Below, piece after piece: positions 2,854 through 27,797 of a stretch of DNA of 64,000 nucleotides (position 1 is the stretch's first letter; each line of letters begins with the position of its first letter). The notes under the pieces are model-generated. The model saw only the letters and a list, made by a program, of their open reading frames with translations. It was not told the DNA's origin and ran no database searches. This stretch comes from an uncultured Actinomycetota bacterium (GTDB taxonomy: Bacteria; Actinomycetota; Thermoleophilia; Solirubrobacterales; Solirubrobacteraceae), in NCBI GenBank assembly GCA_963721515.1, contig CAVRKJ010000010.1, positions 606,672-670,671 on the forward strand. The letters are read 5' to 3'. Position numbers and translations under genes: made by a program.

Positions 2854-2874
2854 GGCGCCGGCGGGGGATCACAG

Positions 2875-8074: not shown

Positions 8075-8130
8075 CTGCAGGAGATAGTACGATTCAGTTG
8101 GTCGGTTACAGATGACCCTTTTTGCTCTAT

Positions 8131-9051: not shown

Positions 9052-9118
9052 GTTCCGTGATCCGCTTGACAGCCGCGGGTCCGTGTGCGACAACGCCGCC
9101 CGTGGAAGGGGTCCAGGG

Positions 9119-10303
9119 ATGACCGACACGACGCTGACCGTTGCGCCGCCCCGGACCAGCCTCCAGGTGCGCGCCAGCGTTCTGCGCGAGCCCGGCCGCC
9201 CGCCTGCCGTGGAGACGGTGCTGCTCGATCCGCCGGGGCCCGGCGAGGTACTCGTGCGCGTCGCCGCCGCCGGTGTCTGCCACTCCGACGTCCATCTCGC
9301 CGACGGCGCGCTCGGGGACGGCCGCTGGCCGATGGTGATGGGCCACGAGGGCGCCGGGGTGATCGAGGCACTCGGCGAGGGCGTGACGGGTGTGCGCCCC
9401 GGCGATCACGTGGTGTTCTGTCTGGTGGCCTCGTGCGGCACCTGTGCGGCGTGCCGGTCCGGGCACCGCACGCTGTGCGAGCCGGTCGGCGCCCAGTCGG
9501 TCGCCGGGAACCTGCCGACCGGCGCCCGACGGCTGCGCGATGCCGCGGGTGACAGCCTCCAGCACGGCCTGACGATCGCGTGCTTCGCCGAGCACGCCGT
9601 CGTCTGCGCCAGCAGCGTCATCCCGATCCCCCACGACGTCCCGCTGTGGCAGGCCGCGCTGCTCGGCTGCGGCGTGGTGACGGGCTTCGGCGCGGTCACC
9701 CACGCCGCCGGCGTACGGATCGGCGAGCGTGTGGCCGTCATCGGCTGCGGCGGGGTCGGGCTGCAGGTGATCGCCGCCGCACGGCTGGCCGGCGCGGGCA
9801 CCATCGTCGCCGTGGACCGCCGCCCGGAGAAACTCGAGCACGCGCTGCGCCGCGGCGCCACCCATGCGGTCGACGGCTCGGACGCAGACGCGGCCGCCGA
9901 GATCGTCGCGCTCACCGACGGGGGCGTCGACCACGCCTTCGAGGTCGTCGGCGCGTCGGCCACGATGCGGCTGGCCTGGGACGCGCTGCGACCGGGCGGC
10001 ACCGCCGTGGTGGTCGGCCTGGCGCCCCGCGGCGTCGAGGTCTCGCTCCCGGCTATCGAGTTCCTATCCGAGAAGTCGATCGTGGGCAGCTACTACGGGA
10101 CCGGCGACCCGGTGGCGACGCTGCCGGGGCTCGTCGACCTCGTCCAGACCGGACGGCTTGAGCTGGCGGACATGGTCTCGCACCTGATCGACCTCGACGG
10201 CGTCGCTGACGCCATGGAGCGGCTGCGCCGGGGCGAGGGTGACCGGTCCGTCATCGTCATCGACCCCGAGCTGGCGGGAGCGACCGCCGGAGGTACGCCA
10301 TGA
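9119..10303 (+). CDS. Zn-dependent alcohol dehydrogenase, class-III-like (formaldehyde-dehydrogenase-type architecture)
   Basis: 'GVCHSD' and 'GHEGAG' Zn-ligand motifs, structural-Zn Cys cluster 'CGTCAACRSGHRTLC', 'LLGCGVVTGFGAV' and Rossmann motif 'IGCGGVG'. ATG 9119 is preceded by GGAAGGGG. Confidence 0.85.
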   Translation: MTDTTLTVAPPRTSLQVRASVLREPGRPPAVETVLLDPPGPGEVLVRVAAAGVCHSDVHLADGALGDGRWPMVMGHEGAGVIEALGEGVTGVRPGDHVVFCLVASCGTCAACRSGHRTLCEPVGAQSVAGNLPTGARRLRDAAGDSLQHGLTIACFAEHAVVCASSVIPIPHDVPLWQAALLGCGVVTGFGAVTHAAGVRIGERVAVIGCGGVGLQVIAAARLAGAGTIVAVDRRPEKLEHALRRGATHAVDGSDADAAAEIVALTDGGVDHAFEVVGASATMRLAWDALRPGGTAVVVGLAPRGVEVSLPAIEFLSEKSIVGSYYGTGDPVATLPGLVDLVQTGRLELADMVSHLIDLDGVADAMERLRRGEGDRSVIVIDPELAGATAGGTP

Positions 10304-10836
10304 GGAACTTCCAGTTCGACCACCTCGACGGCCTCATCGGCGAGGGCTGGAGCGGCACCGACCCCAACGGTGCTCACGTCAACATCGTGCTGGGCGTGCG
10401 CGGGACGCCGACCGCGGCGGCGCTGCTCACCACCTTCACCTCCCCCGCCCCCGGCCACGCCCCCATCCTCGTCGTCGTCGGCGAGGACAAGGCCCATTAC
10501 GAGCCGATCTGGCCGCCGACGATCATGATCAACAAGGAGACCGCGCTCGAGCCAACCCACCAGAAGATCACCTGGGGCGCGGCGCAGCTTGGCATCGCCC
10601 AGGGCGTGCTTGACGCCGTCGCCGAGGAGCTCATCCCCGCCAGCGGGGACCTGATCGTCTTCGTCGCCATCTACATCGATCCCGGCGCCCACGACGAGAC
10701 CGCGGTACGCGTCGCCTCGCGTGCCGCGACGCTCAAGGGGGTGCGCACGGCCCGCCACGGGCGCCCGGCGGCGGACGTGCAGGCCCTCGTCGACCGCCGC
10801 GACACCGTCACCAGCCCGTTCTACAGCGGCTCGTGA
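10300..10836 (+). CDS. Formaldehyde-activating enzyme (Fae) family protein
   Basis: 178 aa. It aligns by eye along its full length with Methylobacterium Fae. Matching blocks: 'GEGWSGTDPNGAHVNIVLGVRGTP' vs '[24 protein letters not shown]', and 'GAAQLGIAQGVLDAVAEELIP' vs '[21 protein letters not shown]'. The start overlaps the ADH stop (ATGA). Confidence 0.75.
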   Translation: MRNFQFDHLDGLIGEGWSGTDPNGAHVNIVLGVRGTPTAAALLTTFTSPAPGHAPILVVVGEDKAHYEPIWPPTIMINKETALEPTHQKITWGAAQLGIAQGVLDAVAEELIPASGDLIVFVAIYIDPGAHDETAVRVASRAATLKGVRTARHGRPAADVQALVDRRDTVTSPFYSGS

Positions 10837-10858
10837 TAGCCCACGGGAGCGACCACTC

Positions 10859-11977
10859 GTGAAGATCACCGCCATCGAGCTCGAGCGGCTGACGCTTCCG
10901 CTCTCCCCGCCCTTCCACGCCGCCTGGGACCCGGACCCGCGCACCCGCTTTGACGCGACACTCGTGCGCGTCCACACCGACGAGGGCGTCACCGGGACCG
11001 CTAGCGGCGACACGATGAGCGGCTTCGAGGCCTTCGCGCACCTGTTCGTCGGCCGCGACCCACTTGCGCTGGCAGCCCACGCGCGGACGCTCGAGACGAT
11101 CGCGTTTCACGCCGGGCGCTACTGGCCGCTCGAGGCCGCCCTCTGGGACCTGGCCGGCCGGGTGCTGGGGGCGCCGGTGGCCACGCTGCTGGGCGGCGCC
11201 TCCGACCGTCTGCCGGTGTACGCGTCCCTGGGCGAGCTGCGCTCCCCCACGCATCGCGCCGACGATGCCCGGGCGCTCGTCTCAGACGGCTTCCGGGCCG
11301 TGAAGGTTCGCATCGCCCGCGACCGGATTCCCGAGGGCATCGCGGTGGTGGCGGCCATGCGCGACGCCGTCGGCGACGCCCTGGACATCATGGTCGATCT
11401 CAACCAGTGGTGGCGGATGCCCGGCGACATCGCGCCGGGCCTGGGCCCCCAGGCGGCGCGCCGCATCATTGACGAGCTGTCCGCCCACGGCGTACTCTGG
11501 GTGGAGGAGCCGCTGGCCGGTGACGACCTGTCGGGGATGCGGATGCTCCGCGAGGTGACCGGCACGCGTATCGCCGGCGGCGAGATGGCGCGTAGCTTCG
11601 ACGATCTGCGCCGTGCGCTGGACGCCGACGCGCTGGACGTGTTCCAGCCCGACGTCGTGCTCGCGCTCGGCATCTCGGGGACGCGGACACTCGCCGACCT
11701 GGCGCTGCGGAGCAACCGCTGGTTCACGCCCCACACCTGGACCAATGGCCTCGGCCTGATGGCCAACCTCCACGTCTGCTGCGGGGTCGGCGGCGGCCCG
11801 TACCTGGAATACCCCTACGACCCGCCCGGCTGGACTCCCGAGCGCCGCGACTTCATGCTCGCCCAGCCGCTGGAGGTCGACGGCGACGGCTGCTTGGCCG
11901 TGAGCGACGCGTCCGGCCTCGGCATCGAGCTCGACGAGGAGGCGGTCGCGCACTACGCGGCCGCCGCCGCCGCATGA
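10859..11977 (+). CDS. Enolase-superfamily enzyme (mandelate racemase / muconate lactonizing enzyme family)
   Basis: GTG 10859 starts 'VKITAIELERLTLPL...'. It has a capping domain followed by a TIM-barrel with metal-ligand contexts 'MVDLNQ', 'WVEEP' and 'FQPD'. The substrate is not inferable. Confidence 0.8.
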   Translation: MKITAIELERLTLPLSPPFHAAWDPDPRTRFDATLVRVHTDEGVTGTASGDTMSGFEAFAHLFVGRDPLALAAHARTLETIAFHAGRYWPLEAALWDLAGRVLGAPVATLLGGASDRLPVYASLGELRSPTHRADDARALVSDGFRAVKVRIARDRIPEGIAVVAAMRDAVGDALDIMVDLNQWWRMPGDIAPGLGPQAARRIIDELSAHGVLWVEEPLAGDDLSGMRMLREVTGTRIAGGEMARSFDDLRRALDADALDVFQPDVVLALGISGTRTLADLALRSNRWFTPHTWTNGLGLMANLHVCCGVGGGPYLEYPYDPPGWTPERRDFMLAQPLEVDGDGCLAVSDASGLGIELDEEAVAHYAAAAAA

Positions 11978-12894
11978 CGACTCCCGAGCCGATCAAGCGC
12001 GTCGCCTTCATCGGCCTTGGCCACATGGGTGGCCACATGTGCCGCAACGTGATCACCGCCGGCTTGGAGGTCACCGCCTACGACCTCGATCCCGAGGCGC
12101 TGGCCCGCACCGCCGCCGATGGCGCTCGGCCCGCCGAGAGTGTCGCTGACTGCGTGCGCGACGCCGAGATCCTGCTCACCAGCCTCCCCGGGCCGCCCCA
12201 GGTGGAGGCGGTGCTCTGCGGCGCCGGCGGCGCCATCGCCGGCATGGCCCCCGGCTCGGTCGCGGTGGACATGAGCACCAGCTCGCTCGAGGTCGGCCGA
12301 CGCGCCCGCGCCGCCGCTGAGGCGGCCGGCGTGCACCTGCTCGACGCGCCGGTGGCCGGCCAGACGATCGGCGCCGAGGCCGGCACCCTGGCGATCTACG
12401 CCGGCGGCGAACCGGAGGTGTTCGCCCGCGCGCTGCCCGTGCTGGAGACGATGGGCGACCCTCAGCGGATCTTCCTGCTCGGCCCCGGCGGCTGCGGGTA
12501 CGCGGTCAAGCTCCTGCTCAACCTCACGTGGTTCATCCAGGCGGTGGCCACTGCCGAGGCGCTGTCGATCGGCGTCAAGGCCGGCGTCGACCTCAGCAAC
12601 CTGCACAGCGCGCTCGTCGCCTCCCCGGCCAACTCGGTGTTCCTCGAGCGCGACGTGCTGCCGCTGCTGGAACGCGGCGATTACGATGACGGCTTCACCA
12701 TGAAGCTGGTGACCAAGGATCTGGGGTTGGCCGTCGATCTGGCGCGCGACATGGGCGTGCCCGTCGAGCTGTCGTCGCTGGTGGAGCAGATCCACCGGCG
12801 CGCTCGCGCCGTCTACGGCGACGACGCCGGGGAGATGAGCGCGGTGCGCCTGTACGAGGACCTCGCCGGAGTGCAGCTGCGATGGCATATGTAG
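11974..12894 (+). CDS. NAD(P)-dependent beta-hydroxyacid dehydrogenase (3-hydroxyisobutyrate / tartronate-semialdehyde reductase family)
   Basis: N-terminal Rossmann motif 'VAFIGLGHMGGHM' and the family core 'GAGYAVKLLLN'-type segment ('GCGYAVKLLLNL'). ATGA overlap with the upstream gene. Confidence 0.85.
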   Translation: MTTPEPIKRVAFIGLGHMGGHMCRNVITAGLEVTAYDLDPEALARTAADGARPAESVADCVRDAEILLTSLPGPPQVEAVLCGAGGAIAGMAPGSVAVDMSTSSLEVGRRARAAAEAAGVHLLDAPVAGQTIGAEAGTLAIYAGGEPEVFARALPVLETMGDPQRIFLLGPGGCGYAVKLLLNLTWFIQAVATAEALSIGVKAGVDLSNLHSALVASPANSVFLERDVLPLLERGDYDDGFTMKLVTKDLGLAVDLARDMGVPVELSSLVEQIHRRARAVYGDDAGEMSAVRLYEDLAGVQLRWHM

Positions 12895-13876: not shown

Positions 13877-15099
13877 GGCCGCAGCTCGCCGCCCTCGCGC
13901 TCCGCGGCGACCAGGGCCGCTCCGCCGTTGGGCGCCGGCGCGCTCATCGGCAGCCACGCGTGCACCCCCCAGCCCCCGTCGTCCCGGCGGCCGGCCTCGA
14001 GTGACCCGCCCAATGCGGCGGCCCGCTCCCGCATGCCCCGGACGCCGTTGCCCATGGGCTCGGACCCGGCAGTCCCGGCCGCTCCGCCCGGCTCGGGCGC
14101 CGCAGTGCCGTCGTCCACGACGTCGATCGTGATCGCGCCCGGGGCGCGGCGCACTCTGACCGTGGTGCTCGTGGCCTGCGCGTGGCGGGCCACGTTGGTC
14201 AGCGCCTCCTGCACGATCCGATAGGCGACGCTCTGTACGGCCGCGGGGACGTCGGCGGCGCTGTCGATGTCCAGCGTCACGTCCACCCCGGCCGAGCGCA
14301 GGCCGCCGGTCAGCTCGGCGATGTCGCCGAGGCCGGCGGGCGGCCCCAGGGGCGCCGCCGCCGAGGGATCGCGGAGCACGTCCAGGGTGGAGCGCAGGTC
14401 GGCCAGGGCGGCGCCGCTGGTGTGCTTGATGTTGCGCAGCGCGCCGTAGGCCTGGCGGGGGTCGCGTTCGAGCAGATGCGCCGCGACGCCCGCCTGGACG
14501 TTGATCGCGGTCATCGCGTGGGCCACGACGTCATGGATCTCGCGGGCGATGCGCAGCCGCTCCTCGCCCACCCGCCGCAGGGTCTCCTGCTCGGCGGTCT
14601 CCACCAGGCGCTGCTCGGACACCCGGCGCGACCGAATCACCTCGCCGGCGGCGATGGCCAGCAGGACGAGAGCGGTGTTGCGGATCACGATCGAGGTGAT
14701 GTGGGAGAAGCCGCTGGCGAACGGGATCACGCTGATGACCACGCACGGCACGATGGCCAGGCTCATCCACAGCGAGCGGCGGCGATCGCCGTTGAGGGCC
14801 AGCTCGAACAGGGCGATCATCGGGATGAGGACGACTGTGTTGGCGGGATGCAGCTGCCACAGCGCGAGCGTCACTCCGCCGACGATGAGCGGCGTCAGCA
14901 CCGGGAAGCTGACGTGCCGGCGCAGCGCCAGCGGCGCGCAGGCGACGAAGACGCAAAGGACGTTGATCACGCCGATCGGCTTGCCCTGCGCCGAGAGCGC
15001 CGCGTCGATGATCAGCACGACGGGGACCAGCAGCACGGGCAGCCAGTCGAGCACGACCGGTGAGCGGGCAAGGCGTCTCGCCACGGCCACCCGGATCAT
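13873..15099 (-). CDS. Sensor histidine kinase (HisKA_3 / NarX-LiaS type), polytopic membrane N-terminus
   Basis: H-box 'REIHDVVAHAMTAINVQ' and ATPase G-box 'GNGVRGMRERAAALGGSL'. ATG 15099 overlaps the MMPL stop (ATGA). Confidence 0.85.
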   Translation of the reverse strand: MIRVAVARRLARSPVVLDWLPVLLVPVVLIIDAALSAQGKPIGVINVLCVFVACAPLALRRHVSFPVLTPLIVGGVTLALWQLHPANTVVLIPMIALFELALNGDRRRSLWMSLAIVPCVVISVIPFASGFSHITSIVIRNTALVLLAIAAGEVIRSRRVSEQRLVETAEQETLRRVGEERLRIAREIHDVVAHAMTAINVQAGVAAHLLERDPRQAYGALRNIKHTSGAALADLRSTLDVLRDPSAAAPLGPPAGLGDIAELTGGLRSAGVDVTLDIDSAADVPAAVQSVAYRIVQEALTNVARHAQATSTTVRVRRAPGAITIDVVDDGTAAPEPGGAAGTAGSEPMGNGVRGMRERAAALGGSLEAGRRDDGGWGVHAWLPMSAPAPNGGAALVAAEREGGELRP

Positions 15100-17189
15100 A
15101 CGGCCGGCGCGGCCACTCCCGGGCGCCGCGCCTCCTGGGGCGCGACCCGGCCATGCAGCCGGCGTAGGGCGGGCGGCGCCCACCAGTTCCAGCGGCCCAG
15201 CAGCGCCATCAGCGACGGCACGAGGAGCGAGCGGACGATGAAGGCGTCCAGCAGCACCCCGGTGGCGACCGCCACCCCGATCTCCTGGATGAAGGAGATC
15301 GAGCTCGTGCTGAAAGCGCCGATGGCCACCGCCAGCAGGATCGCCGCCGCCGTGACGACGCGCCCGGTGGCGGCCAGGCCCGTGGCCACCGCCTCGCGTT
15401 CATCCCCGGGGTTGGCCTCGCGCGCCTCCTTGATGCGCCCGAGCAGGAAGACGCCGTAGTCCGTGGAGAGGGCGAATACGACCGTGGCGGCGACGACGAA
15501 GTCGGTGGGCTCCACGCCGCCGTCGGAGGTGTAGCCCAGCAGCCCGGTGAGGTTGCCGTGCTGGTAGATCAGCACGAGCGGGGTGAGCGCCGCGCCCACG
15601 GTGAGCGCGTTCATGAGGATCGCCTTGACCGGCAGCACGACCGAGCCGGTCATCAGCCACAGCACGACGAACGTGAGCGCCACCAGTAGCCCGATCGCCT
15701 CCGGCAGGTGGGACGCGATCGCGTTCTGCTGGTCCACGAACGTGGCGGCGTCGCCCGTGACCTTGGCCGGGAACGGGGCGGAGACGGCGCGGATCCGGTT
15801 GACGACCCGCTGGGCCGTGGCGCCGGCGCTGTCGCCGGCGACGGGCGCGTTGATCTGCCACGTGGCGTCGCCCAGCAGCCGGGGCGGGGTCACGGCCTCC
15901 ACGCCGGGGATGGCGGCGATCCGGTGCGCGTAGGCGTCCACGGCCGCGCGGTCAGACGCGGGCGCGCGGACGGCCACGGTCACCGGGGACCGGCCCGCAC
16001 CGGCGAAGTCCCGCGCCAGCGCGTCGGCCACCGTGCGCGCGCTCTTGCCCTGCGGGATGACCGAGCTGTCGTTGGCCGAGGACCAGATCGTGCTCAGTGC
16101 CGGTAGGGCCGCCACCACCATCAGCGCCGCGGTGGTCGCGGCCACGATGCCGGGCCGGCGCATGACCGCCCGGGCGAAGCGATACCAGCGGTCGCGCCCC
16201 GCATCCACGTCGGGGCGCGCCAGCTTCATGCCCCACAGGGCCAGCAGGGCCGGGGAGACGGTCACCGACACCACCGCGGCCACGATTGCCGTTGCTGCTC
16301 CGGCGATCCCCATCGACTTCAGGAACCCCTGTGGGAACAGCGTGAGCGTGGCCAGCGCGCAGGCCACCGTGACCGCCGAGAACAGCACCGTCCGGCCGGC
16401 GCGCATCATCGTGGTCGCGATGGCGTCGCCCACGTCGGCTCCCGCCGCCAGCTCCTGGCGGAAGCGCGTGACGAGGAACAGCGTGTAGTCGACCGCCAGC
16501 CCCAGGCCCATGCCGATGACCAGGTTCAGGGCGAAGATGCTCAGCCCGTACACGTGGTTGACCCCGGTGAGGACGAGGAAGGTGCCGAGGACCGTGGTGA
16601 CGCCCACCGCCAGTGGCATCAGCGCGGCGCGCCCGCGGAAGAACAGGATCGAGAGCACGATCAGCAGCGGGAACGCCAGCAGCTCGGCAAAGCCGAGGTC
16701 CGCGGTCACGGTCGAGCTGATCTGCTCGTCGGCGACCTGGGTGCCTCCGACGGTGACGTCGCGATCGTGTGCGAACGCCGACACCGCCGCCTTGGCCGAG
16801 CCCTTGTCATCTGCGGTGGCCGCCAGCGTGGCGGTGATGAGGACGTGGCGCCGGTCACGGGCCACGTCGGCGGGCGCCACCGTGCGCGCGACGCCCGGCA
16901 CCGCCTCCAGGCGGGCGTTGAGCGCCGCAATCCGCGCGCCGGCGGCGGCGGCCCCGCTTGGGGTGTCCACCAGCAGCACGATCCCGGGGACCGGCTCGGT
17001 TCCGCTGGCGCGCTCGAGCATCCGCGTAGCGACCTGCGAGTCAGAGTTGGGCGGCGCGAACCCGCCGGAGCTCTTCAGCGAGCCCGCCAGCGGGCCGCCG
17101 ATGACGCCGGCGACGACGATGAATGCGAGGGTGAGCAGCAGGGTGCGGCGGGGGCGGGCAGAGACCGTGTTGGCGAGTGTTCGAAGCAT
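15096..17189 (-). CDS. MMPL-family (RND superfamily) membrane transporter
   Basis: About 697 aa from ATG 17189 ('MLRTLANTVSARPRRTLLLTLAFIVVAG'). It has two 6-TM bundles with soluble loops, typical of MMPL. The upstream 119 codons of the ORF look non-coding. Confidence 0.85.
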   Translation of the reverse strand: MLRTLANTVSARPRRTLLLTLAFIVVAGVIGGPLAGSLKSSGGFAPPNSDSQVATRMLERASGTEPVPGIVLLVDTPSGAAAAGARIAALNARLEAVPGVARTVAPADVARDRRHVLITATLAATADDKGSAKAAVSAFAHDRDVTVGGTQVADEQISSTVTADLGFAELLAFPLLIVLSILFFRGRAALMPLAVGVTTVLGTFLVLTGVNHVYGLSIFALNLVIGMGLGLAVDYTLFLVTRFRQELAAGADVGDAIATTMMRAGRTVLFSAVTVACALATLTLFPQGFLKSMGIAGAATAIVAAVVSVTVSPALLALWGMKLARPDVDAGRDRWYRFARAVMRRPGIVAATTAALMVVAALPALSTIWSSANDSSVIPQGKSARTVADALARDFAGAGRSPVTVAVRAPASDRAAVDAYAHRIAAIPGVEAVTPPRLLGDATWQINAPVAGDSAGATAQRVVNRIRAVSAPFPAKVTGDAATFVDQQNAIASHLPEAIGLLVALTFVVLWLMTGSVVLPVKAILMNALTVGAALTPLVLIYQHGNLTGLLGYTSDGGVEPTDFVVAATVVFALSTDYGVFLLGRIKEAREANPGDEREAVATGLAATGRVVTAAAILLAVAIGAFSTSSISFIQEIGVAVATGVLLDAFIVRSLLVPSLMALLGRWNWWAPPALRRLHGRVAPQEARRPGVAAPAV

Positions 17190-17398
17190 GCAGTCGATTC
17201 TGCGGGCGCCGGGGGATCCGCACAATCGCCCCGCGGATGTGTCTTTGCCGCCGCCGTAATCCCCGGGATGTACTCCCCGGTGTGCAATCTCAGCCCGCAT
17301 AGTGGCTGTCGCATAAACGAGCGTGACGCGTCGTAGCAAAGTCGACGATCGCGCCGGGCGCCGACAGAGGCTACAGCGCCGCTGCTGCCTGCCGCATG

Positions 17399-17445
17399 AC
17401 TCTGGGACGAAAGGCGCCGGAACTCGACGCTTTCTGTCCCAGAGT
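17399..17445. repeat. Long inverted repeat (15-bp stem with one bulge, 16-nt loop) in the 375-nt gap upstream of the MMPL gene
   Basis: ACTCTGGGACGAAAG (17399-17413) pairs with CTTTC-T-GTCCCAGAGT (17430-17445). Confidence 0.6.
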
Positions 17446-17519
17446 GTCCTCCCGGATGCAGGCGCAGGTGACCAGCCACGCCACTCACCGCCGTTGTCGT
17501 CCTCAGGAAATCGTGGATT

Positions 17520-17547
17520 TGTGTCATAGGGCGCATGAGATGACACA
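17520..17547 (-). terminator. Hairpin 17 nt downstream of the HAL-like gene stop (candidate terminator, no U-tract)
   Basis: TGTGTCAT (17520-27) and ATGACACA (17540-47) form an 8-bp stem with a 12-nt loop. Confidence 0.3.
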
Positions 17548-17564: not shown

Positions 17565-18986
17565 TCAGCCGGGGATCCCACCCCCGAGCCGCTCCGCCAG
17601 CCGCCCCAGTTCGGCGCCGATCGACCGGCGCGCCACCACCGGCGGGCAAATCTCGAGCACATCGGCTGTGAACGCGCTCAGGGCCGGCGGCGGCGCCCGG
17701 TCCGTGCGCGCGAAGGACTGAGCGGCCATGGCCGCGAGGCACGTGAGCGAGCCCACCACGAAACCGCGCACGCGGTCAAAGCGGTTCCAGGCGTGAAACG
17801 ACGGCGACGGCGCGTCGTTCTGCCCAAACCCCGGCAGCGGCAGCAACGAAGGTACCGCCGCCGTCCGGGCCTCCTCGGCGTAGCCGGCACTCACCATCTG
17901 CATCGTCCCCAGCGCCAGCGAGTCCAGGCCGGGCATCGCCTCGGGGTTCGTCTGCAGCCGCTGGAGCTGATGCTGGGCCAGCTGGGCCAGGTCAGCCAGC
18001 GCGAAGGTGAGGCCGTCGATGGCCGCCGGCGCGGCGCCGTTGTGAAAGCCGCCGGTCGAGACGATGTCGCCCGTGTCGCCGTTGGCCTGGCCGTCGCCGT
18101 CGCCGTCGCCGAACAGGAAGACGGGGTTGTCCGACACGGCGGGCAAGGCGATCTCCGCGGCCTCGCGCGCCGCGCCCAGCAGCCGGTTGGCGTTGCCCAA
18201 CACCCGCGGCAGGATCCGGAAGCTGACCGGCGGCTGCGGGTGCGCGTCAGCGCCCGGCGGCGGCCCGGCGCCGGCGATCCCGGCACGGATCGCCTGCAGG
18301 GCGGCGGTCTGCGCCGGATCGCCCCACAGCGCCTCCAGGCGCTCGTTATAGATTGAGGCGCTGACCCCGAAGGCCGCCACCGCCAGGCAGAACGCGTCCA
18401 CCGCCACCGCGAGCGTCCGCTCGGTGCACAGAGCGGCATCGGCGAGCAGCGCCGGGGCACACGGGGCGCCGTTGATGAGCGCCATCCCCTCCTTCACGCC
18501 CAGCTCCATCTCCCTGGGCACGTCCTCGAACAGCCAGCCGAGCGCCAGGATCTCGCCCGGGCCGCCGTTGCCCAGCCGCGGGACCGGCGGCAAGTCCCGG
18601 CCGTCCAGCTGCCGGGCCACCGCCTCCACCAGCGCGGGGGTGACCCCGGCGTGCCCCTCAACGAGGTTGGCCAGCCGCGCCAGCACGAACCCCCGGACCA
18701 CCCGCCGCGGGAACGGCGCGCCGAACGAGGTGGCGCTGTGCAGACCACGGGCGTAGTCGCGCTGCTCGGCCTCGCTCATCAGCCGGTCCGAGCCGTCGCC
18801 GGCGTGGACGTTGACGCCGTAGATCTTGCGGGCGGGGTCAGCCGTCACCAGCGCCAGGAACTCCGCGCGCCGGCGCGCCACCTCGGCCAGTGCCGCGGGG
18901 GTCACCACGACGTCCTCGCCCCGCCAGGCCACGCGGGCGAACGCGGCCAGGTCGATGTCGGCGCGGCGCGCGAGAGTGACCGTCAC
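17565..18986 (-). CDS. Aromatic-amino-acid-lyase family (HAL/PAL, PF00221-like) protein, divergent, no Ala-Ser-Gly triad (paralog 1)
   Basis: GTG 18986 overlaps the hutF stop (GTGA). Family blocks present: 'IYGVN', 'GMALINGAP', 'SDNPVF', 'STGGFHNGAAPAAIDG'. The MIO position reads 'LGNGGPGEILALG' (nt 18555-18563 encode GPG). The 124 Arg/Pro-rich codons upstream in the ORF were rejected. Confidence 0.7.
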   Translation of the reverse strand: MTVTLARRADIDLAAFARVAWRGEDVVVTPAALAEVARRRAEFLALVTADPARKIYGVNVHAGDGSDRLMSEAEQRDYARGLHSATSFGAPFPRRVVRGFVLARLANLVEGHAGVTPALVEAVARQLDGRDLPPVPRLGNGGPGEILALGWLFEDVPREMELGVKEGMALINGAPCAPALLADAALCTERTLAVAVDAFCLAVAAFGVSASIYNERLEALWGDPAQTAALQAIRAGIAGAGPPPGADAHPQPPVSFRILPRVLGNANRLLGAAREAAEIALPAVSDNPVFLFGDGDGDGQANGDTGDIVSTGGFHNGAAPAAIDGLTFALADLAQLAQHQLQRLQTNPEAMPGLDSLALGTMQMVSAGYAEEARTAAVPSLLPLPGFGQNDAPSPSFHAWNRFDRVRGFVVGSLTCLAAMAAQSFARTDRAPPPALSAFTADVLEICPPVVARRSIGAELGRLAERLGGGIPG

Positions 18987-20122
18987 GGCCGCACGCCCAC
19001 GCGGACCACCCCTGCCGACGCGCAGGTCGCGACCGCGAGCATCACGTCCGCCTCGGCCACGTTGGCGAGGTCCGGGTGGTCGAGGTTGAGCTCGATCTCG
19101 GCAACGGGCGCTGCGGGGAGGCCCAGGCTCGCGCGCCCGTTGACCGCCGTCTGCCCCCACAGGTCCCCGCCGGCGGCGGCCAACAGAGCGAAACGGGTGT
19201 GGCCCTCGCGGCGGGCCAGCGTCTCCATCTCGCGCAGCTCCTCGAAGGGATCGATCCGCACCTGCTCGTCGGTCCCGATGGCCAGGCGCACGCCGGCGTC
19301 GCGGTAGCGCAGCCCCGGCAGGAAGCCGTCGCCGAGGTTGCCCTCGGTGGTCGGGCACGTGACCACGATCGAGTCGCTCTCGGCCACCAGCGACACGTCA
19401 CGCTCGGAGACATGGATGGCGTGGATGACGCTCGTGCGCGGGCCGAGGAAGCCGGTGCGCGCCAGGAGCTCGATCGGCGAGCACCCGTGCTCGGCCTCGC
19501 ACTCAGCCAGCTCCCGCCGCTGCTCGGAGGCATGGACGTGGCGAACCAGACCGTGCTCCTCGGAGTAGCGCGCGATCTCCGACAGCCACCCGGCGGGGAC
19601 GGCCCGCACGCTGTGGGCCGCCACTCCCACGCTCACGCCATCAACGCCCGCGGCCCAGCGGCGCAGCCCGTCCACGCGCTCCAGGAACGCCTGTACCGAA
19701 GGGTCGCAGAAGCGCAGCTGTCCCGCCCCGGGCGGGGAGTCAGACCCCGCCCACCCGCCGCGGTGATAGGCGGCCGGCAGCAGCGTGATCTCGAGCCCGG
19801 CCGCGCGCGCCGCCTCGGCGAGCGCGATCGCCATCGCATTGGGCTCGGGGTAGGGCGTGCCGTCGGTCTGGTGGTGGACGTAGTGAAACTCGCCGACGGC
19901 GCCGTAGCCCGCCGCCGCCATCTGACCGTAGACGCGACGGCCGACCTCGCCCATCGTCTCCGGGGTGTGGCTCCCGGCCAGGCGGTACATCTCGGTCCGC
20001 CAGCTCCAGAAGTCGTCGGTGGCGCTCGAGGCGCTCACCCGCTCTGCGATGCCGCGCAGGTCGAGCTGGAACGCGTGCGAGTGCGCGTTGGCCATCGCGG
20101 GAATGCGAGCGATGCGGGTCAT
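18983..20122 (-). CDS. hutF: Formimidoylglutamate deiminase (HutF-type amidohydrolase), short N-terminus
   Basis: 'IPAMANAHSHAFQ' compares with Pseudomonas HutF 'LPGMPNLHSHAFQ'. 'FWSWRTEMYRL' and 'GEFHYVHH' also match. At 379 aa it lacks the ~55-aa N-terminal segment of the ~450-aa enzymes. ATGA overlap with hutI. Confidence 0.75.
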   Translation of the reverse strand: MTRIARIPAMANAHSHAFQLDLRGIAERVSASSATDDFWSWRTEMYRLAGSHTPETMGEVGRRVYGQMAAAGYGAVGEFHYVHHQTDGTPYPEPNAMAIALAEAARAAGLEITLLPAAYHRGGWAGSDSPPGAGQLRFCDPSVQAFLERVDGLRRWAAGVDGVSVGVAAHSVRAVPAGWLSEIARYSEEHGLVRHVHASEQRRELAECEAEHGCSPIELLARTGFLGPRTSVIHAIHVSERDVSLVAESDSIVVTCPTTEGNLGDGFLPGLRYRDAGVRLAIGTDEQVRIDPFEELREMETLARREGHTRFALLAAAGGDLWGQTAVNGRASLGLPAAPVAEIELNLDHPDLANVAEADVMLAVATCASAGVVRVGVRP

Positions 20123-21381
20123 GGGCCGCTGATTCTCTCCGCCGCCGCGTCGTCGCGCACGTAGGCGACCTCGCCGCCCACGATCGCGATCGCCACCGGG
20201 TTGTGGCCGAAGCGGTAGGGCACCGATTCCGCGGGCCCGTCCAGCACCACCAGGTCGGCGCGCTTGCCCACCTCGATCGACCCCCGGTCATGGTGCAGGT
20301 CAAGCGTCCAGGCGGCGTTCAGCGTGGCCGCCCCCAGCGCCTCGCACACGCTGAGCCCGTACAGGCGCGCGCCCAGTCCGATGACCACCGGCATCGAGAA
20401 CACCGGCGAGGTGCCGGGGTTGGCGTCGGTGGCCAGCACGAAGATCGCTCCCGCGTCGATGATCGCCCGTCCCGGGGCGCGGTGCTCGGCACCGAGGAAC
20501 TCCGCGCCCGGCAGCAGCACGGCGGCGCAGCGGGCCTGCGCCAGCGGGACGATGTCGTCGGGGTGGATCATCGACAGATGGTCGACGCTGCGCGCGCCGG
20601 CGGCGAGCGCCACCGGGACCGAGCGCAGGCACGACAGCTGCTCAACGTGGGTGCGCAGCGCCAGCCCCGACGCCGCCGCCAGCTCCCCCATCAGCTCGAG
20701 ATGCCCCAGGCCGAACGCGATCGACTCGACGAAGATGTCCAGCGCGGTCACGCTGCCCGCAGCCACCACCTCGGGCATCATCTCCTGCACCACCGCCATC
20801 CACGAGTCGGCGGTGTGGCCTTCGGGGACGGCGTGGGCGAGCAGCGCCGTGGAGGTGGTCGTTTGCACGACCTGGATCTCGAGCTCGCGCGCCAGCACCA
20901 GCGCCCGCATCTCCCCCTCGCGCGAGAGCCCGTAGCCCGACTTGCACTCGAACGTGGTGGTGCCCGCGGCGAGCATCTCCTCGGCCAGACCCGACGCCTG
21001 ATCGAGCACGGCGTCATCCGAGGCCTCGTGCAGCGCCCGCGCCGAGGACTTGATGCCTCCCCCGGTGCGCGCGATCTCCTCGTATGGCACCCCGGTCAGC
21101 TTCTGCTCGTACTCGCGCCAGCGCCACCCGGCGAACGGCAGATGGGTGTGGCAGTCCACGAACCCGGGGATGACCGTGCATCCGGAGGCGTCCACGGTCA
21201 CCTCGGCGATCGGGTCGGCCTCCAGTGCGGCGATCCGGCCGTCACGCGCGGCCACCGACCCGGGGTCGAGCGTCTGGGCGCCCAGCTCGTCGCCGCGCAG
21301 GTGCTCCATGCGGTCCCGGGGCGGGCGCAGCACCTGGGCGGCGCCCGTGATCGACAGCGGCGGCGGCGCTGGGCTCACCAC
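20119..21381 (-). CDS. hutI: Imidazolonepropionase
   Basis: 420 aa. '[18 protein letters not shown]' metal-binding motif, amidohydrolase fold, and position between hutU and hutF. Confidence 0.9.
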
Positions 21382-21385
21382 GCGC

Positions 21386-23032
<1,647 letters not shown>

Positions 23033-23095
23033 TGGCGCCGCACGCTACCGCAGCGGGCGTCCGGCCGGGGTCCGCGGGTAGGGTGCAAACCACTG

Positions 23096-23692
23096 ATGGT
23101 CTTCAACCCGCTGAGCGCCCGCGCGGAGCGCAAGACCAGCCGGATGCTCACGCGCGTCGGCTGGGAGCCGCCGCAAACCTGGCCGGTGGCGCGCGCCGGC
23201 GAGCCGCCGCTGGTCTTCCAGACCCGGCTGCCCGCCGCCGAGTTCGTGCCCGCCGCGCAGCTGCCGGCGCAGCACCGCGACGCTCTCGCCTCGCTCGGCG
23301 GCGAGGCGATGCCGCTGGCGCAGGCCGAGCGCGCCGAGGACGTGTTCCTGGCCGCGGCGATCTGCTCCACGCAGGGCGACCACGGCGTGCTGGCGACGAT
23401 GACGGCGGCCTTGGCAGCGCAGCCGCTGCCGTTCCTGGATCGCCGCGGCGTCGAGCAGGGGCGCCGGGCCCGCAAGAAGGTCAACGGCATGCTCGGCCGC
23501 GTCACGATGATCGAGCGTCTGGACGGCGATGCGTCGCCGTCGCCCCTCGTCGTCCAGTACGCGATCGCACACCGTTACGGCACGCTCACGCTCACCTTCG
23601 TGGCGCACGGGTCGGGGCTGGCCGGCAACGCCCGCCGCCTGTTCCAGAACATCGTCCGGGGCTGCCATCTCGGCACCGAGCCGCTCATTTAG
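23096..23692 (+). CDS. Hypothetical protein (198 aa), no recognisable domain
   Basis: ATG 23096 lies inside ORF 22073..23692; the upstream part is antisense to hutU. Third-position GC is very high throughout, as in neighbouring real genes. Its stop overlaps the stop of the convergent OCD-family gene. Confidence 0.55.
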   Translation: MVFNPLSARAERKTSRMLTRVGWEPPQTWPVARAGEPPLVFQTRLPAAEFVPAAQLPAQHRDALASLGGEAMPLAQAERAEDVFLAAAICSTQGDHGVLATMTAALAAQPLPFLDRRGVEQGRRARKKVNGMLGRVTMIERLDGDASPSPLVVQYAIAHRYGTLTLTFVAHGSGLAGNARRLFQNIVRGCHLGTEPLI

Positions 23693-24693
23693 CGGTACGA
23701 GAGCGTCGTGCCCACCCCGAGCGCGCGCGCCTTGGCCAGCATTGCCTGACCCAGGGCGATGTCGGTGATCGAAAGCCCGCGGTGCCAGAACAGGATCCGC
23801 TCGTCCTCGCGCTCACGGCCGGGCCGGGCCCCGCACACGATCTGTCCCAGCTCGGCATGGAGGTTGTCCTGGGTGAGCCGGCCCGAGTCGACGTGCGCGC
23901 GCAGCGACCCGAGCGGGCCGATGCCGGCCTGGCCCCAGTCGTCGACGATGATTTTGTCCATCACGTCGGTGAGGTCCAGCTCCACCGCGCTGACCGTCCC
24001 ATAGGGGATGACCAGCGCGCCCGGTCGCACCCACGCGGTGGCCAGCAGCGGCTCGGGCTCGGTCAGCCGGGTGGCCTCGACGATGACGTCGGCGCCCTGC
24101 AGGCATTCGTCCCAGCTGTCCACCGCGCGCACCGGCGGGGCGGGCCGGGGCAGTGTCTCAGTGAGCCGCTGGGCGAACGCCTCGCGGCTCTCGCGCCGTC
24201 GCGAGTGGACGCGGACCTCCTCAAGCGCGGGTAGCACGTGGCACAGCAGCCGCACGTTCCAGTACGCCGTCCCGCGGGCGCCCACATGCCCGAGTACGCG
24301 CGCGTCACGCCGGGCCAGGTGCTCGGCGCCGATCGCGGTCACCGCCCCGGTCCGCATCTCGGTGATGGCGGTGGCGTCGATGACGGCGCGGGGCACGCCG
24401 GTGCCCGGGTCCATGAGCAGCAGCAGCGCCAGCTCGGACGGCAGTCCGACGCGGTGGTTGTCCACGTAGTCACCCACCACCTTGACCCCGGCGAACTCCG
24501 GCACGGCGCCGCGCAGCACGTTGAAGTGGCCGTTGACGGCGCGCGGGAACAGGTGCGTGCGGGGCTCGATCACGGTCTCGCCCCGCCCCTGGGCGGCGAG
24601 CACCCCGCGCACCGCCTCGAGGATCTCGTCGTCTGAGAGCGCCAGCGCCTCGACGTCCGCACCGCTGAGGTAGGTCAACTCGATGACACTCAC
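23689..24693 (-). CDS. Ornithine cyclodeaminase / mu-crystallin family NAD-dependent enzyme
   Basis: GTG 24693 ('VSVIELTYLSGADVEAL') overlaps the stop of the upstream lyase-like gene (GTGA). It has the 'TEMRTGAVTAI' family motif and the Rossmann segment 'LGHVGARGTAYWN'. Confidence 0.8.
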   Translation of the reverse strand: MSVIELTYLSGADVEALALSDDEILEAVRGVLAAQGRGETVIEPRTHLFPRAVNGHFNVLRGAVPEFAGVKVVGDYVDNHRVGLPSELALLLLMDPGTGVPRAVIDATAITEMRTGAVTAIGAEHLARRDARVLGHVGARGTAYWNVRLLCHVLPALEEVRVHSRRRESREAFAQRLTETLPRPAPPVRAVDSWDECLQGADVIVEATRLTEPEPLLATAWVRPGALVIPYGTVSAVELDLTDVMDKIIVDDWGQAGIGPLGSLRAHVDSGRLTQDNLHAELGQIVCGARPGREREDERILFWHRGLSITDIALGQAMLAKARALGVGTTLSYR

Positions 24694-26225
24694 GCCAACG
24701 TCACCGCGGCGCGCACTCGCTCGAGGAGATCGCCGCCGATGAGGGCGTGAGCGGCGAGCCGTTCCACGTCGGGCCCGACCGGCCGGTCCTCCGACAGCGT
24801 GTCGACCCAGTCGCGGACCACGGCGAAGGCGGCGGCGGTGCCCGCTCCGAGGAGCTCGGCCCGTCCGGCCGCGACCAGGTCGACCGCCTGGGCGGCGACG
24901 ATGAGCTCGATCGCCGCCACCAGCCACATCCGCTGCAGCTGCTCACGCAGCCGCAGCGCCGCGTGGGTGGCGCCCGTGGAGTCGTCTTCCACGCCGTCGC
25001 CGCCGATCGTCGGCATGATCGAGAGCGGCGCGGCGAGGTGGCGGATCTCCACCGTCAGCGCCTGGGCCGTCTTGGTCAGCGGCGACAGCCCCGAGCCGGT
25101 CACGCCCAGCGGAGACAGCCCCGCCGGGAGGCCGCTGAGGCGCTCGGTCTTCAGGCGGGCCTGGCGCTGGGCGCTTGCCGCCGCCACCTGCGCCAGCGCG
25201 ATCGCGGCCGCGTCCAGCGCCAGAGCCAGCGCGGGCACGTGGAAGTTGCCGGTGGAGAGGATCTCATCGTCCCCGGTGAGGACCAGCGGGTTGTCGGCCG
25301 CGCCCTGCAACTCGGCGGCCACCGCCGGCGCCAGCAGCTCCAGCGCGGCGCGCAGCGAGCCGTGGATCTGGCTGGCGCAGCGCAGGCTGATCGGATCCTG
25401 GAGCCGCCGGGCTGCCCCGGGCTCGGTGAGCGCACCGCCGGCCAGCAGCTCGCGCAGCCCCGCCGCCGACCACTCCTGGCCCGGCGCCGGGCGCGCCGCG
25501 ACCACGCGCGGATCCAGCGGGCTGAGATTGGCGCGGAATCCCTCCATCGACAGCGCCGCCGCCACCTGCATGGTCTCCAGGCACGCGGCGGCGTCGAGGA
25601 GCGCCAGCGCCGCCACCCCGGCGGACACCGCGGAGCTCGAGCAGATCGCCAGACCGTCCTTGGGGCCCAGCGTCACCGGGGCCAGGCCAGCGCGGGCGAG
25701 GGCATCGCCTGACGCCATCCGCACGCCGTCCAGCTCCGCGTCGCCCTCGCCGATCAGCGTCAGCCCGACATGGGCGAGCATGCACAGATCCGACGCGCCC
25801 ACCGAGCCGGTGTGCGGGATGCACGGGTGCACCCCGGCGCGGATGAGCGCCGCCAGCCCGTCGGCGATGGCCACGCTCGCGCCCGCGCCGCCGGCGCACA
25901 GGCCGTTGCACCGCACCGCCATCGCCGCCCGGGTGAGCTCCGCCGGCAGCGGCTCACCGACGGACATCGCCCGGCCCCGCAGCGTGCGCAGCGAGAACTC
26001 GGCGGCCGCCGCCCCATCGATCCGCTCCACCACCCGCGGGCCCAGGCCGGTGGTCAGGCCGTAGACCGGGGTGCCGGCGCGGGCGGCCCGCTCCACCACC
26101 GCCGCGGCGGCGAGCATGCGCTCGCGCGCCTCCGGTGCGATCGCGACGCCGGCGCCCTCACGCGCGATCCGAGCCACATCCCGCGGCATCAGCTCGGATC
26201 CGTCCAGCAAGACGCTCCCGTCCAT
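24690..26225 (-). CDS. Aromatic-amino-acid-lyase family (HAL-like) protein with degenerate MIO motif (paralog 2)
   Basis: 511 aa. Contains 'VYGLTTGLG', 'QDPISLRC' and 'STGNFH'. The MIO position reads 'GSVGAS-DLCMLAH' (nt 25788-25799 encode G-A-S-D), so the Gly of Ala-Ser-Gly is missing. Confidence 0.8.
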   Translation of the reverse strand: MDGSVLLDGSELMPRDVARIAREGAGVAIAPEARERMLAAAAVVERAARAGTPVYGLTTGLGPRVVERIDGAAAAEFSLRTLRGRAMSVGEPLPAELTRAAMAVRCNGLCAGGAGASVAIADGLAALIRAGVHPCIPHTGSVGASDLCMLAHVGLTLIGEGDAELDGVRMASGDALARAGLAPVTLGPKDGLAICSSSAVSAGVAALALLDAAACLETMQVAAALSMEGFRANLSPLDPRVVAARPAPGQEWSAAGLRELLAGGALTEPGAARRLQDPISLRCASQIHGSLRAALELLAPAVAAELQGAADNPLVLTGDDEILSTGNFHVPALALALDAAAIALAQVAAASAQRQARLKTERLSGLPAGLSPLGVTGSGLSPLTKTAQALTVEIRHLAAPLSIMPTIGGDGVEDDSTGATHAALRLREQLQRMWLVAAIELIVAAQAVDLVAAGRAELLGAGTAAAFAVVRDWVDTLSEDRPVGPDVERLAAHALIGGDLLERVRAAVTLA

Positions 26226-26267
26226 CGCGGGCGACGATACTGACCGGTGGCACTAGAGTGCCGCGCG

Positions 26268-27797
26268 ATGTCGACGCCGGCATTCACCGACGGCGAGCAC
26301 CCGCCCGTTGTCCTCGACGGCTCCACCCTCACCCCGCAAGGGGTGGCGGCGATCGCCCGCGACGGCGCGGTGGCGGTCCTCTCCTCCGGAGCGCGGGCGC
26401 GCAACGATCGTGCGCGCGAGGCGATCGCGGCGCTGCTGGCCCGCGGCGACGACCTCTACGGCGTCACCACGGGCGTCGGCGCGCTCCGCGCCTACCGGGT
26501 CCCCGAGGAGGACCGCGAGCGCTACGGGCTCAACCTGCTGCGCAGCCACGCCTGCGGCGCCGGTCTCATCCTCACCGCGCCCGTGGTCCGCGCCGCCATG
26601 GCCACCCGGGCCAACCAGATCGGCGCCGGCGGCGCGGGCGTTGCCAGCGAGCTTCTGGACACCCTGGTCGGCGCCCTCAATGCTGGGCTGACGCCGTTCA
26701 CCCGCGAGCTGGGCTCGCTGGGGACCGGCGATCTGACCAACCTGGCCGACGTGGCCCTGGCCCTGCTGGGCGAGGGCCGCGTGTGGCGGGGCGACGACCT
26801 CATCGACGCCGCGCAGGGCCTTACCGATGCCGGCGTGGAGCCGGGACGCATCGGCCCGCGCGACGGCCTGGCGTTCATCAGCTCCAACGCCTTCAGCATC
26901 GGCTACGCGGCGCTGCTCGTCGTTGATGCGCGGCGGCTGCTCGACGCCTGGCTGTCGGTGGCGGCATTGTCCTTCGAGGCCGCCGCTGCCGACCCGGTGG
27001 TGCTCGACCCCCGCATCCACTCCGCGATCCACCGGCCGGGCCAGTCGGCGGTGGCCCGTCGCATGCGCGAGCTGCTGGCCGGCCTGGAGGAGCGGGCGCG
27101 CGAGCCGGGTCCGCTGGGGATCCAGGACCCGTACCCGTTCCGCGCCCAGCCGCAGGTCGACGGCGCCGTGCACGATGCGCTGCGCGCGCTCGAGGAGACC
27201 GTCTGCCACGAGCTCAACTTTGCCGGCGAGAACGCCCTGATCGTCCCCGGGGAGGACATCGCACTGCCCAACGGCAACCCTCACGCGGCGCCGCTGGCCA
27301 ACGCCATCGACGGCCTGCGCACCGCGCTGGCGTCGTCAGCGGCGCTGATCGCCGCCCGAGTGTCGACCCTCCTGGACACCGGCCTCACCGGGCTGCCCCC
27401 GTTCCTGGCCCGCCATCCCGGCCCGGAGTCCGGCGCCCTCGTGCTCGAGTACACCGCTCACGCCGCCGTGGCGGAGGTGCGCTCGCTCGTCACCCCGGTG
27501 GCGGCCCAGACCGTGTCGGTGTCCCGCGGCGTCGAGTCGCATTCCAGCCTCGCGCCCATCGCCGCGCGGCGCGCCCACGAGACGCTGCGCGCCTTGCGCG
27601 TCGCGGTCGCCACGGAGCTCGTTGTCGCCGTGCGGGCCCTGCGCGTGGCCGGGCAGGAGCCCGTGGGCGCGGGCACGCGCGAGCTGTGGGCGCTAGCGGC
27701 CGAGCGCCTGGACCCGGACCTCCGCGACCGGCCGCTGCATCCTGACGTCGAGGCCGCTCGCGAGCTCATCGACGCGTGGGACACCGCGCTGGGCTGA
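26268..27797 (+). CDS. Aromatic-amino-acid-lyase family (HAL-like) protein with non-canonical triad (paralog 3)
   Basis: Contains 'LYGVTTGVG', 'LRSHACGAG', 'IQDPYPFRAQPQV' and 'GVESHSS'. The MIO position reads 'GSLGTGDLTNLA' (nt 26721-26729 encode G-T-G). The start is ATG 26268 or GTG 26247. Confidence 0.8.
   Translation: MSTPAFTDGEHPPVVLDGSTLTPQGVAAIARDGAVAVLSSGARARNDRAREAIAALLARGDDLYGVTTGVGALRAYRVPEEDRERYGLNLLRSHACGAGLILTAPVVRAAMATRANQIGAGGAGVASELLDTLVGALNAGLTPFTRELGSLGTGDLTNLADVALALLGEGRVWRGDDLIDAAQGLTDAGVEPGRIGPRDGLAFISSNAFSIGYAALLVVDARRLLDAWLSVAALSFEAAAADPVVLDPRIHSAIHRPGQSAVARRMRELLAGLEERAREPGPLGIQDPYPFRAQPQVDGAVHDALRALEETVCHELNFAGENALIVPGEDIALPNGNPHAAPLANAIDGLRTALASSAALIAARVSTLLDTGLTGLPPFLARHPGPESGALVLEYTAHAAVAEVRSLVTPVAAQTVSVSRGVESHSSLAPIAARRAHETLRALRVAVATELVVAVRALRVAGQEPVGAGTRELWALAAERLDPDLRDRPLHPDVEAARELIDAWDTALG

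Follow-up and report, generated by a model that had tools for sequence, protein, structure and literature searches.

The characterized members of the PF00221 family that lack the 4-methylidene-imidazol-5-one (MIO) cofactor are all trimethylammonia-lyases acting on histidine betaines. Ergothionase of Treponema denticola (ergothioneine trimethylammonia-lyase, Td_ETL, PDB 6s7j) has no MIO, Swoo_3913 of Shewanella woodyi converts histidine betaine to urocanate and trimethylamine, and SO_3299 is an N-pi-methyl-histidine-betaine lyase (bioRxiv 10.1101/2025.08.13.670108; 10.64898/2026.04.22.720169). A His and a Glu, which bind the two imidazole nitrogens, are listed as conserved in Td_ETL, Swoo_3913 and SO_3057, and the authors of the Shewanella study reported that the trimethylamino group is strongly required by all related MIO-deficient lyases. 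Such enzymes have become known only recently (ergothionase; the histidine-betaine lyases since 2025) and come from one or two small clades. Our literature searches returned nothing on ‘thiourocanate hydratase’ and only irrelevant results on MIO-lacking paralogs of histidine ammonia-lyase (HAL). Here we analyze gene X (17565–18986, minus strand), which encodes a 473-residue, short HAL-family protein without the MIO-forming triad and follows the histidine utilization genes hutU, hutI and hutF in a 64,000-nucleotide stretch (the window) of contig CAVRKJ010000010.1 from an uncultured member of Actinomycetota. With about even confidence, we propose that X is an active, MIO-independent C–N lyase which supplies HutU, HutI and HutF with urocanate made from a histidine betaine, either hercynine or a relative.

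Gene X, its operon and the missing triad

The window has a G+C content of 72% and is most closely related to metagenome-assembled genomes of Solirubrobacteraceae (Actinomycetota). As an earlier sequence-only reading had noted, the GTG start codon of X overlaps the stop codon of hutF (GTGA); the codon-position G+C (0.77/0.54/0.93) is that of a coding sequence only downstream of 18986, which confirms both the frame and the start. That reading had assigned the protein to the aromatic-amino-acid-lyase family, and indeed PF00221 matches it with 157.1 bits (E 7.9e-46; gathering score 27.3), as a weak family member, and all the strings quoted for it are present in the translation (GMALINGAP, SDNPVF, TGGFHNG, LGNGGPGEILALG and QPPVSFR). 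It is not a canonical histidase, again in agreement with the earlier view: the hutH equivalog model TIGR01225 gives 121.7 bits, far below its cut-off of 539.15, and no NCBIfam model claims proteins of this type, hereafter X-type, in an NCBIfam profile comparison.

The identities given earlier to the three preceding genes, all on the minus strand, are confirmed by family models. hutU (21386–23032) encodes a urocanate hydratase of the canonical type (TIGR01228, 921 bits), which the thiourocanate models score at 677 and 700, under their cut-offs; hutI (20119–21381) encodes imidazolonepropionase (TIGR01224, 326 bits, cut-off 298), and hutF (18983–20122) a short, 379-residue formimidoylglutamate deiminase (NF006681, 404 bits, cut-off 362). 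HutF aligns only to positions 51–415 of the 451-residue model, with both termini missing, but relatives have a form of like length (381 residues), so that shortness is a trait of the lineage and no truncation has to be assumed. We saw no gene for N-formylglutamate deformylase (hutG) in the hut operon. X does stand after hutF, as had been stated, but the operon may extend beyond it, since an MMPL-family transporter gene (15096–17546; PF03176, 236 bits) lies 19 bp downstream on the same strand and occupies that place in most of the loci described below. A promoter and terminator scan of the window DNA, with its 72% G+C, gave nothing useful.

To trace the arrangement, we scanned one genome per species and obtained 42 loci, all from Solirubrobacterales, in which gene X is intact and conserved. 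With one exception, all loci with sufficient flanking sequence keep the order hutU-hutI-hutF-X, about 35 loci have X coupled to hutUIF, and the stop/start overlap between hutF and X is retained over the whole radiation of Solirubrobacterales. The only X ortholog outside the hut operon (58% identical; locus L028, 10001–11347) is surrounded by an AsnC regulator, a 2OG-Fe(II) oxygenase/HalD-like gene and an SDR, which provide no functional hint.

At the site of the Ala-Ser-Gly triad of histidase, from which MIO is formed, X reads G142-P143-G144; the location of these codons at 18555–18563 (minus strand) was verified by translation and by alignment to HAL and ergothionase. The absence of any Ala-, Thr- or Cys-Ser-Gly, reported in the sequence-only reading, is borne out, as the protein contains no [ATCS]-S-G at all. 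In the HMMER alignment with Pseudomonas putida HAL (1gkm), Pro143 of X stands opposite Ser143 of HAL and the loop of X is one residue shorter. MAFFT, run with HAL and T. denticola ergothionase sequences taken from PDB alignments, again places Pro143 opposite Ser143 with one residue fewer; the loops read G-A-S-G-D in HAL, G-E-G-D in ergothionase and G-P-G-E in X. Since the two aligners agree, a misaligned triad, which had been named as the result that would overturn the claim, is ruled out.

Position 143 is variable among the relatives of X. In 148 of them it is occupied by Ser (77), Pro (43) or Ala (24), with at least about 10 switches on the neighbor-joining tree of these sequences, whereas its flanks are invariant (G-N-G-G-x-G-E-I). 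Such variation within an invariant loop implies that MIO is dispensable for the X-type family. Pro is also found in the nine closest cluster representatives. The Pro and Ala sub-clades are large and old, spanning 60–100% identity, with intact genes and dN/dS that is not raised. Conservation, dN/dS and the Pro-bearing sister sequences rule out a sequencing error or a pseudogene, and the absent triad is a lineage trait, due neither to chance nor to error. Neither Pro nor Ala at this position can yield the methylidene group, and X, judged by its sequence, should be unable to make MIO. The earlier statement that the cofactor cannot form by the known route thus stands, but the inability to work without it applies only to ammonia as the leaving group.

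Active site of X and comparison with characterized lyases

In HAL numbering, X keeps Tyr53, Asn195, Gln277, Arg283, Asn313 and Phe329-His330, as do its orthologs (37 aligned). Tyr56 of X (18819–18821, minus), the counterpart of the β-proton acceptor Tyr53, is found in 36 of the 37 orthologs and in 88% of the wider clade, and Tyr56, Gln251, Arg257 and Asn287 are each present in at least 36 of the 37. The segment Q251-P-P-V254-S-F-R257 (18216–18236, minus) retains HAL Gln277 and Arg283 and replaces Tyr280 by Val, and its Gln, Val and Arg are invariant in the orthologs, so the altered Tyr280 context pointed out earlier is real; ergothionase has Leu at this position and paralog A, a further PF00221 protein of the window described below, has Leu, Ile or Val in its group. 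Together with 65 distant cluster representatives, the orthologs share Y53, G144, N195-G196, Q277, R283, N313-P314, H330 and D415. In these representatives, conservation of the catalytic Tyr and of the carboxylate clamp amounts to 88–95% (about 86–95% when N195 and H330 are included). The residues conserved clade-wide are thus the active-site residues of histidase, which argues for an enzyme rather than a scaffold.

Other parts of the histidase pocket are gone. Both imidazole ligands are replaced across the whole X-type clade: His83 by Ser in X (Ser, Ala or Thr in orthologs) and Glu414 by Asn390 (17817–17819, minus; Asn in 26 orthologs, Thr in 10 and Ser in one), the Glu being retained by HAL, ergothionase and paralogs A and B. 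Mutating H83 or E414 makes histidase about four orders of magnitude less active. With both lost, any imidazole substrate must be bound by X in a different way. Furthermore, the 22–23 residues that follow the loop (HAL 158–179) are deleted, and Met takes the position of ergothionase Lys384 in 36 of the 37 orthologs.

The AlphaFold monomer of X (pLDDT 80.7, pTM 0.84) has the all-helical histidase fold, and its superposition on P. putida HAL, proposed as a check by the sequence-only reading, gave a TM-score of 0.83 to 1b8f. Foldseek further gave 0.80 to ergothionase 6s7j, with a probability of 1.00 for all listed chains of HAL, TAL and ETL; every PF00221 structure fell at 0.75–0.83, so that a HAL-like and an ergothionase-like protein are not separable by fold. 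X is under purifying selection: in close pairs its dN/dS (0.16–0.20) is like that of hutF (0.14–0.21) and hutI (0.08–0.18), which indicates that the protein is functional and, in view of the intact Pro and Ala sub-clades, that its function is independent of MIO.

Compared with P. putida HAL/HutH (1b8f/1gkm; TIGR01225), its best structural match, X shares the location in a hut operon and the residues Y53, N195, Q277, R283, N313, F329 and H330, but differs in the absent Ala-Ser-Gly, in the replacement of Tyr280 by Val, H83 by Ser and E414 by Asn, and in the deletion of residues 158–179. With ergothionase X has in common the fold, the lack of MIO, a loop one residue shorter than that of HAL, the catalytic Tyr (Tyr54 in Td_ETL), the Gln/Arg/Asn carboxylate clamp, an aliphatic residue at the Tyr280 position and, through other X-type genes, a link to ergothioneine-utilization clusters. 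The two are nonetheless distant (about 18% identity; phmmer E 1.8e-8). In X the essential thiolate-binding Lys384 is replaced by Met, neither imidazole ligand (His or Glu) is present, the HAL-type Asn195 is kept where ergothionase has Ser, 22–23 residues are deleted, and the coupled gene here encodes a canonical urocanase and no thiourocanate hydratase. Given the loss of Lys384, X is no ergothionase in the strict sense.

The Shewanella enzymes, compared here by the residues listed in the respective papers, resemble X more closely in one respect, namely, the neutral residue at the Lys384 position; Swoo_3913 and SO_3299 are likewise MIO-less PF00221 proteins with the Tyr base and the Gln/Arg/Asn clamp. 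Moreover, the urocanate that Swoo_3913 releases along with trimethylamine is the product that would feed HutU. Unlike X, Swoo_3913 retains the imidazole-binding His117 and Glu467, and the Shewanella enzymes are periplasmic and coupled to respiratory flavocytochrome reductases, whereas X has no obvious N-terminal signal peptide and belongs to a catabolic hut operon. The most plausible reading of these comparisons is that X would work like the MIO-less trimethylammonia-lyases while being a member of neither characterized group.

On the model of ergothionase and the histidine-betaine lyase, the carboxylate of the substrate would be held by Gln251, Arg257 and Asn287, and Tyr56, situated on a mobile loop, would take the β-proton. 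The group that then departs would require no electrophilic cofactor and is most likely trimethylammonium; the product would be an imidazole-acrylate. Translational coupling of X to hutU-hutI-hutF makes urocanate the most likely product here and, by extension, a histidine betaine the likely substrate, either hercynine or a close relative of it. The cell would thereby gain a route from compounds of the ergothioneine family into the Hut pathway. That X is a lyase, and what its leaving group, substrate and product are, we infer from the residues and the gene context described here.

The X-type clade, the paralogs and other genes of the window

By profile similarity X belongs to a large, uncharacterized X-type clade. 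The profile of the X family recovers 230 clusters (50% identity) at E<1e-30 among 1.84 billion representatives, and a search begun from one sub-branch (P0123) brings up over 2,500 proteins at E ≤ 1e-30; in source databases these proteins are labeled only ‘histidine ammonia-lyase’ or ‘aromatic amino acid lyase’. A set of hallmarks is common to 65 of the 70 full-length profile matches: the short G-x-x-G-[S/A/P]-G-E loop, the 22–23-residue deletion, Asn195-Gly196, Gln277-x-Pro-Val-Ser-x-Arg283, Asn313-Pro, [Phe/Tyr]-His and, at the Glu414 site, Gln-[Asn/Ser/Thr/Asp]-Asp.

Two loci (L055 and L056) have an X-type gene, 42% identical to X, within an ergothioneine-utilization cluster. Next to it are genes for an ErtD-like hydantoin-5-propionate amidohydrolase (484 bits), a regulator of the IclR type and a homolog of urocanase with its best score as thiourocanate hydratase (749–782 bits), together with a thiohydantoin-desulfurase-like gene (398 bits), ErtE (533 bits, cut-off 520), an A-type lyase with the loop GSVG-AS-DL, and an Opp-type ABC importer with the same Pfam architecture as the importer of the window. 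A different arrangement is seen in locus L047, where an IclR regulator is followed by an ABC importer, an enolase-superfamily (MR_MLE) gene and an X-type gene (45% identical), the last two overlapping, and in L057, where the order is Zn-ADH, MR_MLE, X-type. In the fetched flanks of 8–9 kb of both loci the X-type gene is the only HAL homolog called. The window has counterparts of these parts as well. Its Opp/Dpp-type importer (1135–6823, plus; Pfam matches to a family-5 binding protein, permease(s) and a fused double ATPase) is 46% identical to that of L047 in the binding protein and 58% in the ATPase, and its MR_MLE gene (10721–11977, plus) is 64% identical (E 2e-177) to the one of L047; in attempts to name MR_MLE proteins of this type via NCBIfam and PDB, the only matches were weak ones, to dehydratases of acid sugars and to structural-genomics entries without a name. 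The order in L057 recalls the window block of ADH, Fae, MR_MLE and dehydrogenase at 8927–12894. Elsewhere, a UbiD decarboxylase is the neighbor of one X-type gene, a context in favor of the proposed lyase; enzymes of this class are known to decarboxylate α,β-unsaturated acids. Others lie near an MFS transporter with a PucR-type regulator, a flavin reductase or an Fe-ADH, contexts that tell little about function. Locus L049 (3326–6183) has two tandem X-type genes (472 and 480 residues; about 39–40% identical to X) with overlapping stop and start codons, whose products may form a hetero-oligomer.

Two further PF00221 genes lie 6–9 kb upstream of X, beyond hutU, and neither has an Ala-Ser-Gly. 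Paralog A (24690–26225, minus) encodes a 511-residue, MIO-less and ergothionase-like protein with the loop GSVG-AS-DL, whose best PDB match is 6s7j (222 bits); it retains the thiolate-binding Lys384 in 24 of 25 orthologs and has Arg at the His83 position. Paralog B (26247–27797, plus) is a HutH-like protein of 516 residues with the loop GSLG-T-GDL, which contains no Ser and puts Gly-Thr-Gly at the Ala-Ser-Gly site; its best PDB match is HAL 7tqr (244 bits). B retains S82-H83, Y280 and E414 and has Pro in place of Phe329. GSLGTGDL is found in every locus in which the aligned stretch covers the loop, and dN/dS of B (0.04–0.08) shows a constraint as strong as that on hutU. Searches for homologs of B recovered only Solirubrobacteraceae orthologs with generic names, and B may be a lyase of hercynine, may act as a histidase by means of an ethylidene-type cofactor, for which there is no precedent, or may have some other role. 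A histidase encoded elsewhere, one of the options in the sequence-only reading, is matched by the window insofar as further HAL paralogs are indeed nearby, but none of them is canonical: tblastn with P. putida HAL finds only X, A and B in the window, and none of the loci examined has an Ala-Ser-Gly histidase gene within 10 kb. Paralogs A and B, together with the cyclodeaminase gene described next, are present in most loci and missing from the deepest lineages of X. In five loci A and/or B (L015, L018, L029, L034, L037), and in one locus X (L042, 10074–11406), appear split into two or more reading frames, which could reflect real decay or frameshift errors of assembly.

Directly downstream of A lies a gene of the ornithine cyclodeaminase/mu-crystallin family (23689–24693, minus; PF02423, 173 bits), the start of which is approximate, the listed open reading frame (ORF) of 23689–24927 overlapping A; in relatives the two genes overlap by 4 nt (L001, 2688–4253 and 4250–5245). 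The ergothioneine pathway as described does not include such a pairing of A with an ornithine cyclodeaminase. In the interval from the cyclodeaminase gene to hutU, on the strand opposite to both, an ORF of 211 residues without a Pfam match (23057–23692, plus) is 69–94% identical in close relatives, and in L003 an MFS transporter gene takes its place. A conserved block at 8116–12894 (plus) comprises a LysR regulator, a class-III/NDMA-type Zn alcohol dehydrogenase resembling formaldehyde dehydrogenase, a homolog of Fae (formaldehyde-activating enzyme), the enolase-superfamily enzyme and a 3-hydroxyisobutyrate-dehydrogenase-like gene. The presence of formaldehyde-handling genes beside putative trimethylamine-releasing lyases is suggestive.

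Candidate reactions of X

Several observations weigh against the proposal that X makes urocanate from a histidine betaine. X lacks His83 and Glu414, the imidazole ligands kept in histidase, ergothionase and Swoo_3913, and paralog B, which by its sequence keeps them, is as a candidate hercynine lyase at least as good as X. X also evolves fastest in the operon, with protein identities of 53–89% compared with 86–99% for HutU, and the active-site loops of its monomer model are of low confidence. In addition, no trimethylamine-oxidizing gene is found among the annotated parts of the window (about 1–42 kb), and some of the distant X-type genes have surroundings with no relation to histidine.

The last observation, together with the loss of both imidazole ligands, is what would be expected if X were an active lyase or other enzyme acting on a non-histidine substrate, its place after hutF being a lineage-specific operon fusion. 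The substrate might then be another amino-acid betaine or an N-substituted amino acid, imported by the Opp-type system and processed with the enolase-superfamily enzyme. Consistent with this, the ancestral-looking module consists of ABC importer, MR_MLE and X-type genes without hut genes (L047, L057), the window has a close counterpart of each of its parts (46–64% identity), and the contexts of X-type genes are varied (MFS with PucR-type regulator, flavin reductase, Fe-ADH, UbiD). However, the overlap coupling of hutUIF and X has been kept across the Solirubrobacterales radiation, X-type genes are independently embedded in ergothioneine-utilization clusters, and the residues conserved clade-wide fit a histidase-like pocket for a carboxylate and β-carbon. 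We consider a non-histidine substrate possible but doubtful. Catalysis could instead have been lost along with MIO, leaving a pseudoenzyme that serves as a structural or regulatory partner (forming, for instance, a hetero-tetramer together with an A- or B-type lyase) or as a ligand sensor. The losses in X (MIO, Tyr280, H83, E414 and the 22–23-residue segment) would agree with such a role, as would the lowest protein identity among the operon genes, the co-occurrence with A- or B-type paralogs here and in ergothioneine-utilization clusters, and the hint of hetero-oligomers from the tandem genes of L049. Yet a scaffold needs none of the Tyr, clamp, N195 and H330 residues that distant representatives keep, and dN/dS of X equals that of hutF and hutI. 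Moreover, X remains after hutUIF in loci that have neither A nor B within 10 kb (L030, L032, L035, L042), and an X-type gene is the sole HAL homolog called near the L047 and L057 modules. The non-lyase binding or regulatory protein suggested by the sequence-only reading is therefore disfavored, and we regard a pseudoenzyme as unlikely.

X might also be the true histidase of the operon, deaminating L-histidine without MIO. It occupies the position expected for hutH, no Ala-Ser-Gly HAL gene lies within 10 kb in the loci examined, and in lineages without A and B it is the sole HAL homolog near hutUIF. Against this, elimination of ammonia from histidine without MIO is unprecedented, the Shewanella study found the trimethylamino group to be required, H83 and E414 are absent from X, and a canonical hutH may be located elsewhere in the genome. 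MIO-independent deamination of histidine, put forward in the earlier reading, is thus conceivable in principle but has no chemical precedent and would have to proceed with both imidazole ligands gone; we rate it as quite improbable. Finally, about half of the relatives read G-S-G, which is cyclizable in principle, so that X could be an ordinary MIO-dependent histidase, either with a misaligned triad or as a recent inactive mutant of an MIO-making Gly-Ser-Gly form. Not only do the HMMER and MAFFT alignments agree, but the Pro and Ala sub-clades are too large, old and intact, with dN/dS too low, for a recent inactivation, the loop lacks one residue relative to all MIO enzymes, a trait shared with the MIO-less ergothionase, and the hutH model scores X far below its cut-off. 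This reading is effectively refuted, with hardly any probability left to it.

A different chemistry, the further option raised in the sequence-only reading, is supported as the likeliest outcome, its MIO-less precedent being the trimethylammonia-lyases, and an active C–N lyase on a histidine betaine, either hercynine or a relative, remains the reading that we favor. Less probably, though worth keeping in view, the X-type clade catalyzes a reaction new to the histidase fold. Histidine might lose ammonia, or an amine that is partly methylated or bears some other substituent, in an MIO-free elimination; alternatively, a still-unknown metabolite of the ergothioneine family might be cleaved. The linked MR_MLE enzyme and the importer of the Opp type may act in concert with such an X-type enzyme.

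The X-type clade is separate from, and much larger than, the clades of the known MIO-less members, and its natural variation of Ser, Pro and Ala at position 143 offers a ready-made experiment on the dispensability of MIO. Knowledge of the substrate would correct thousands of annotations and show how far the histidase fold works without its cofactor. A further step in the turnover of ergothioneine and hercynine in the environment, and in the formation of trimethylamine, could also come to light.

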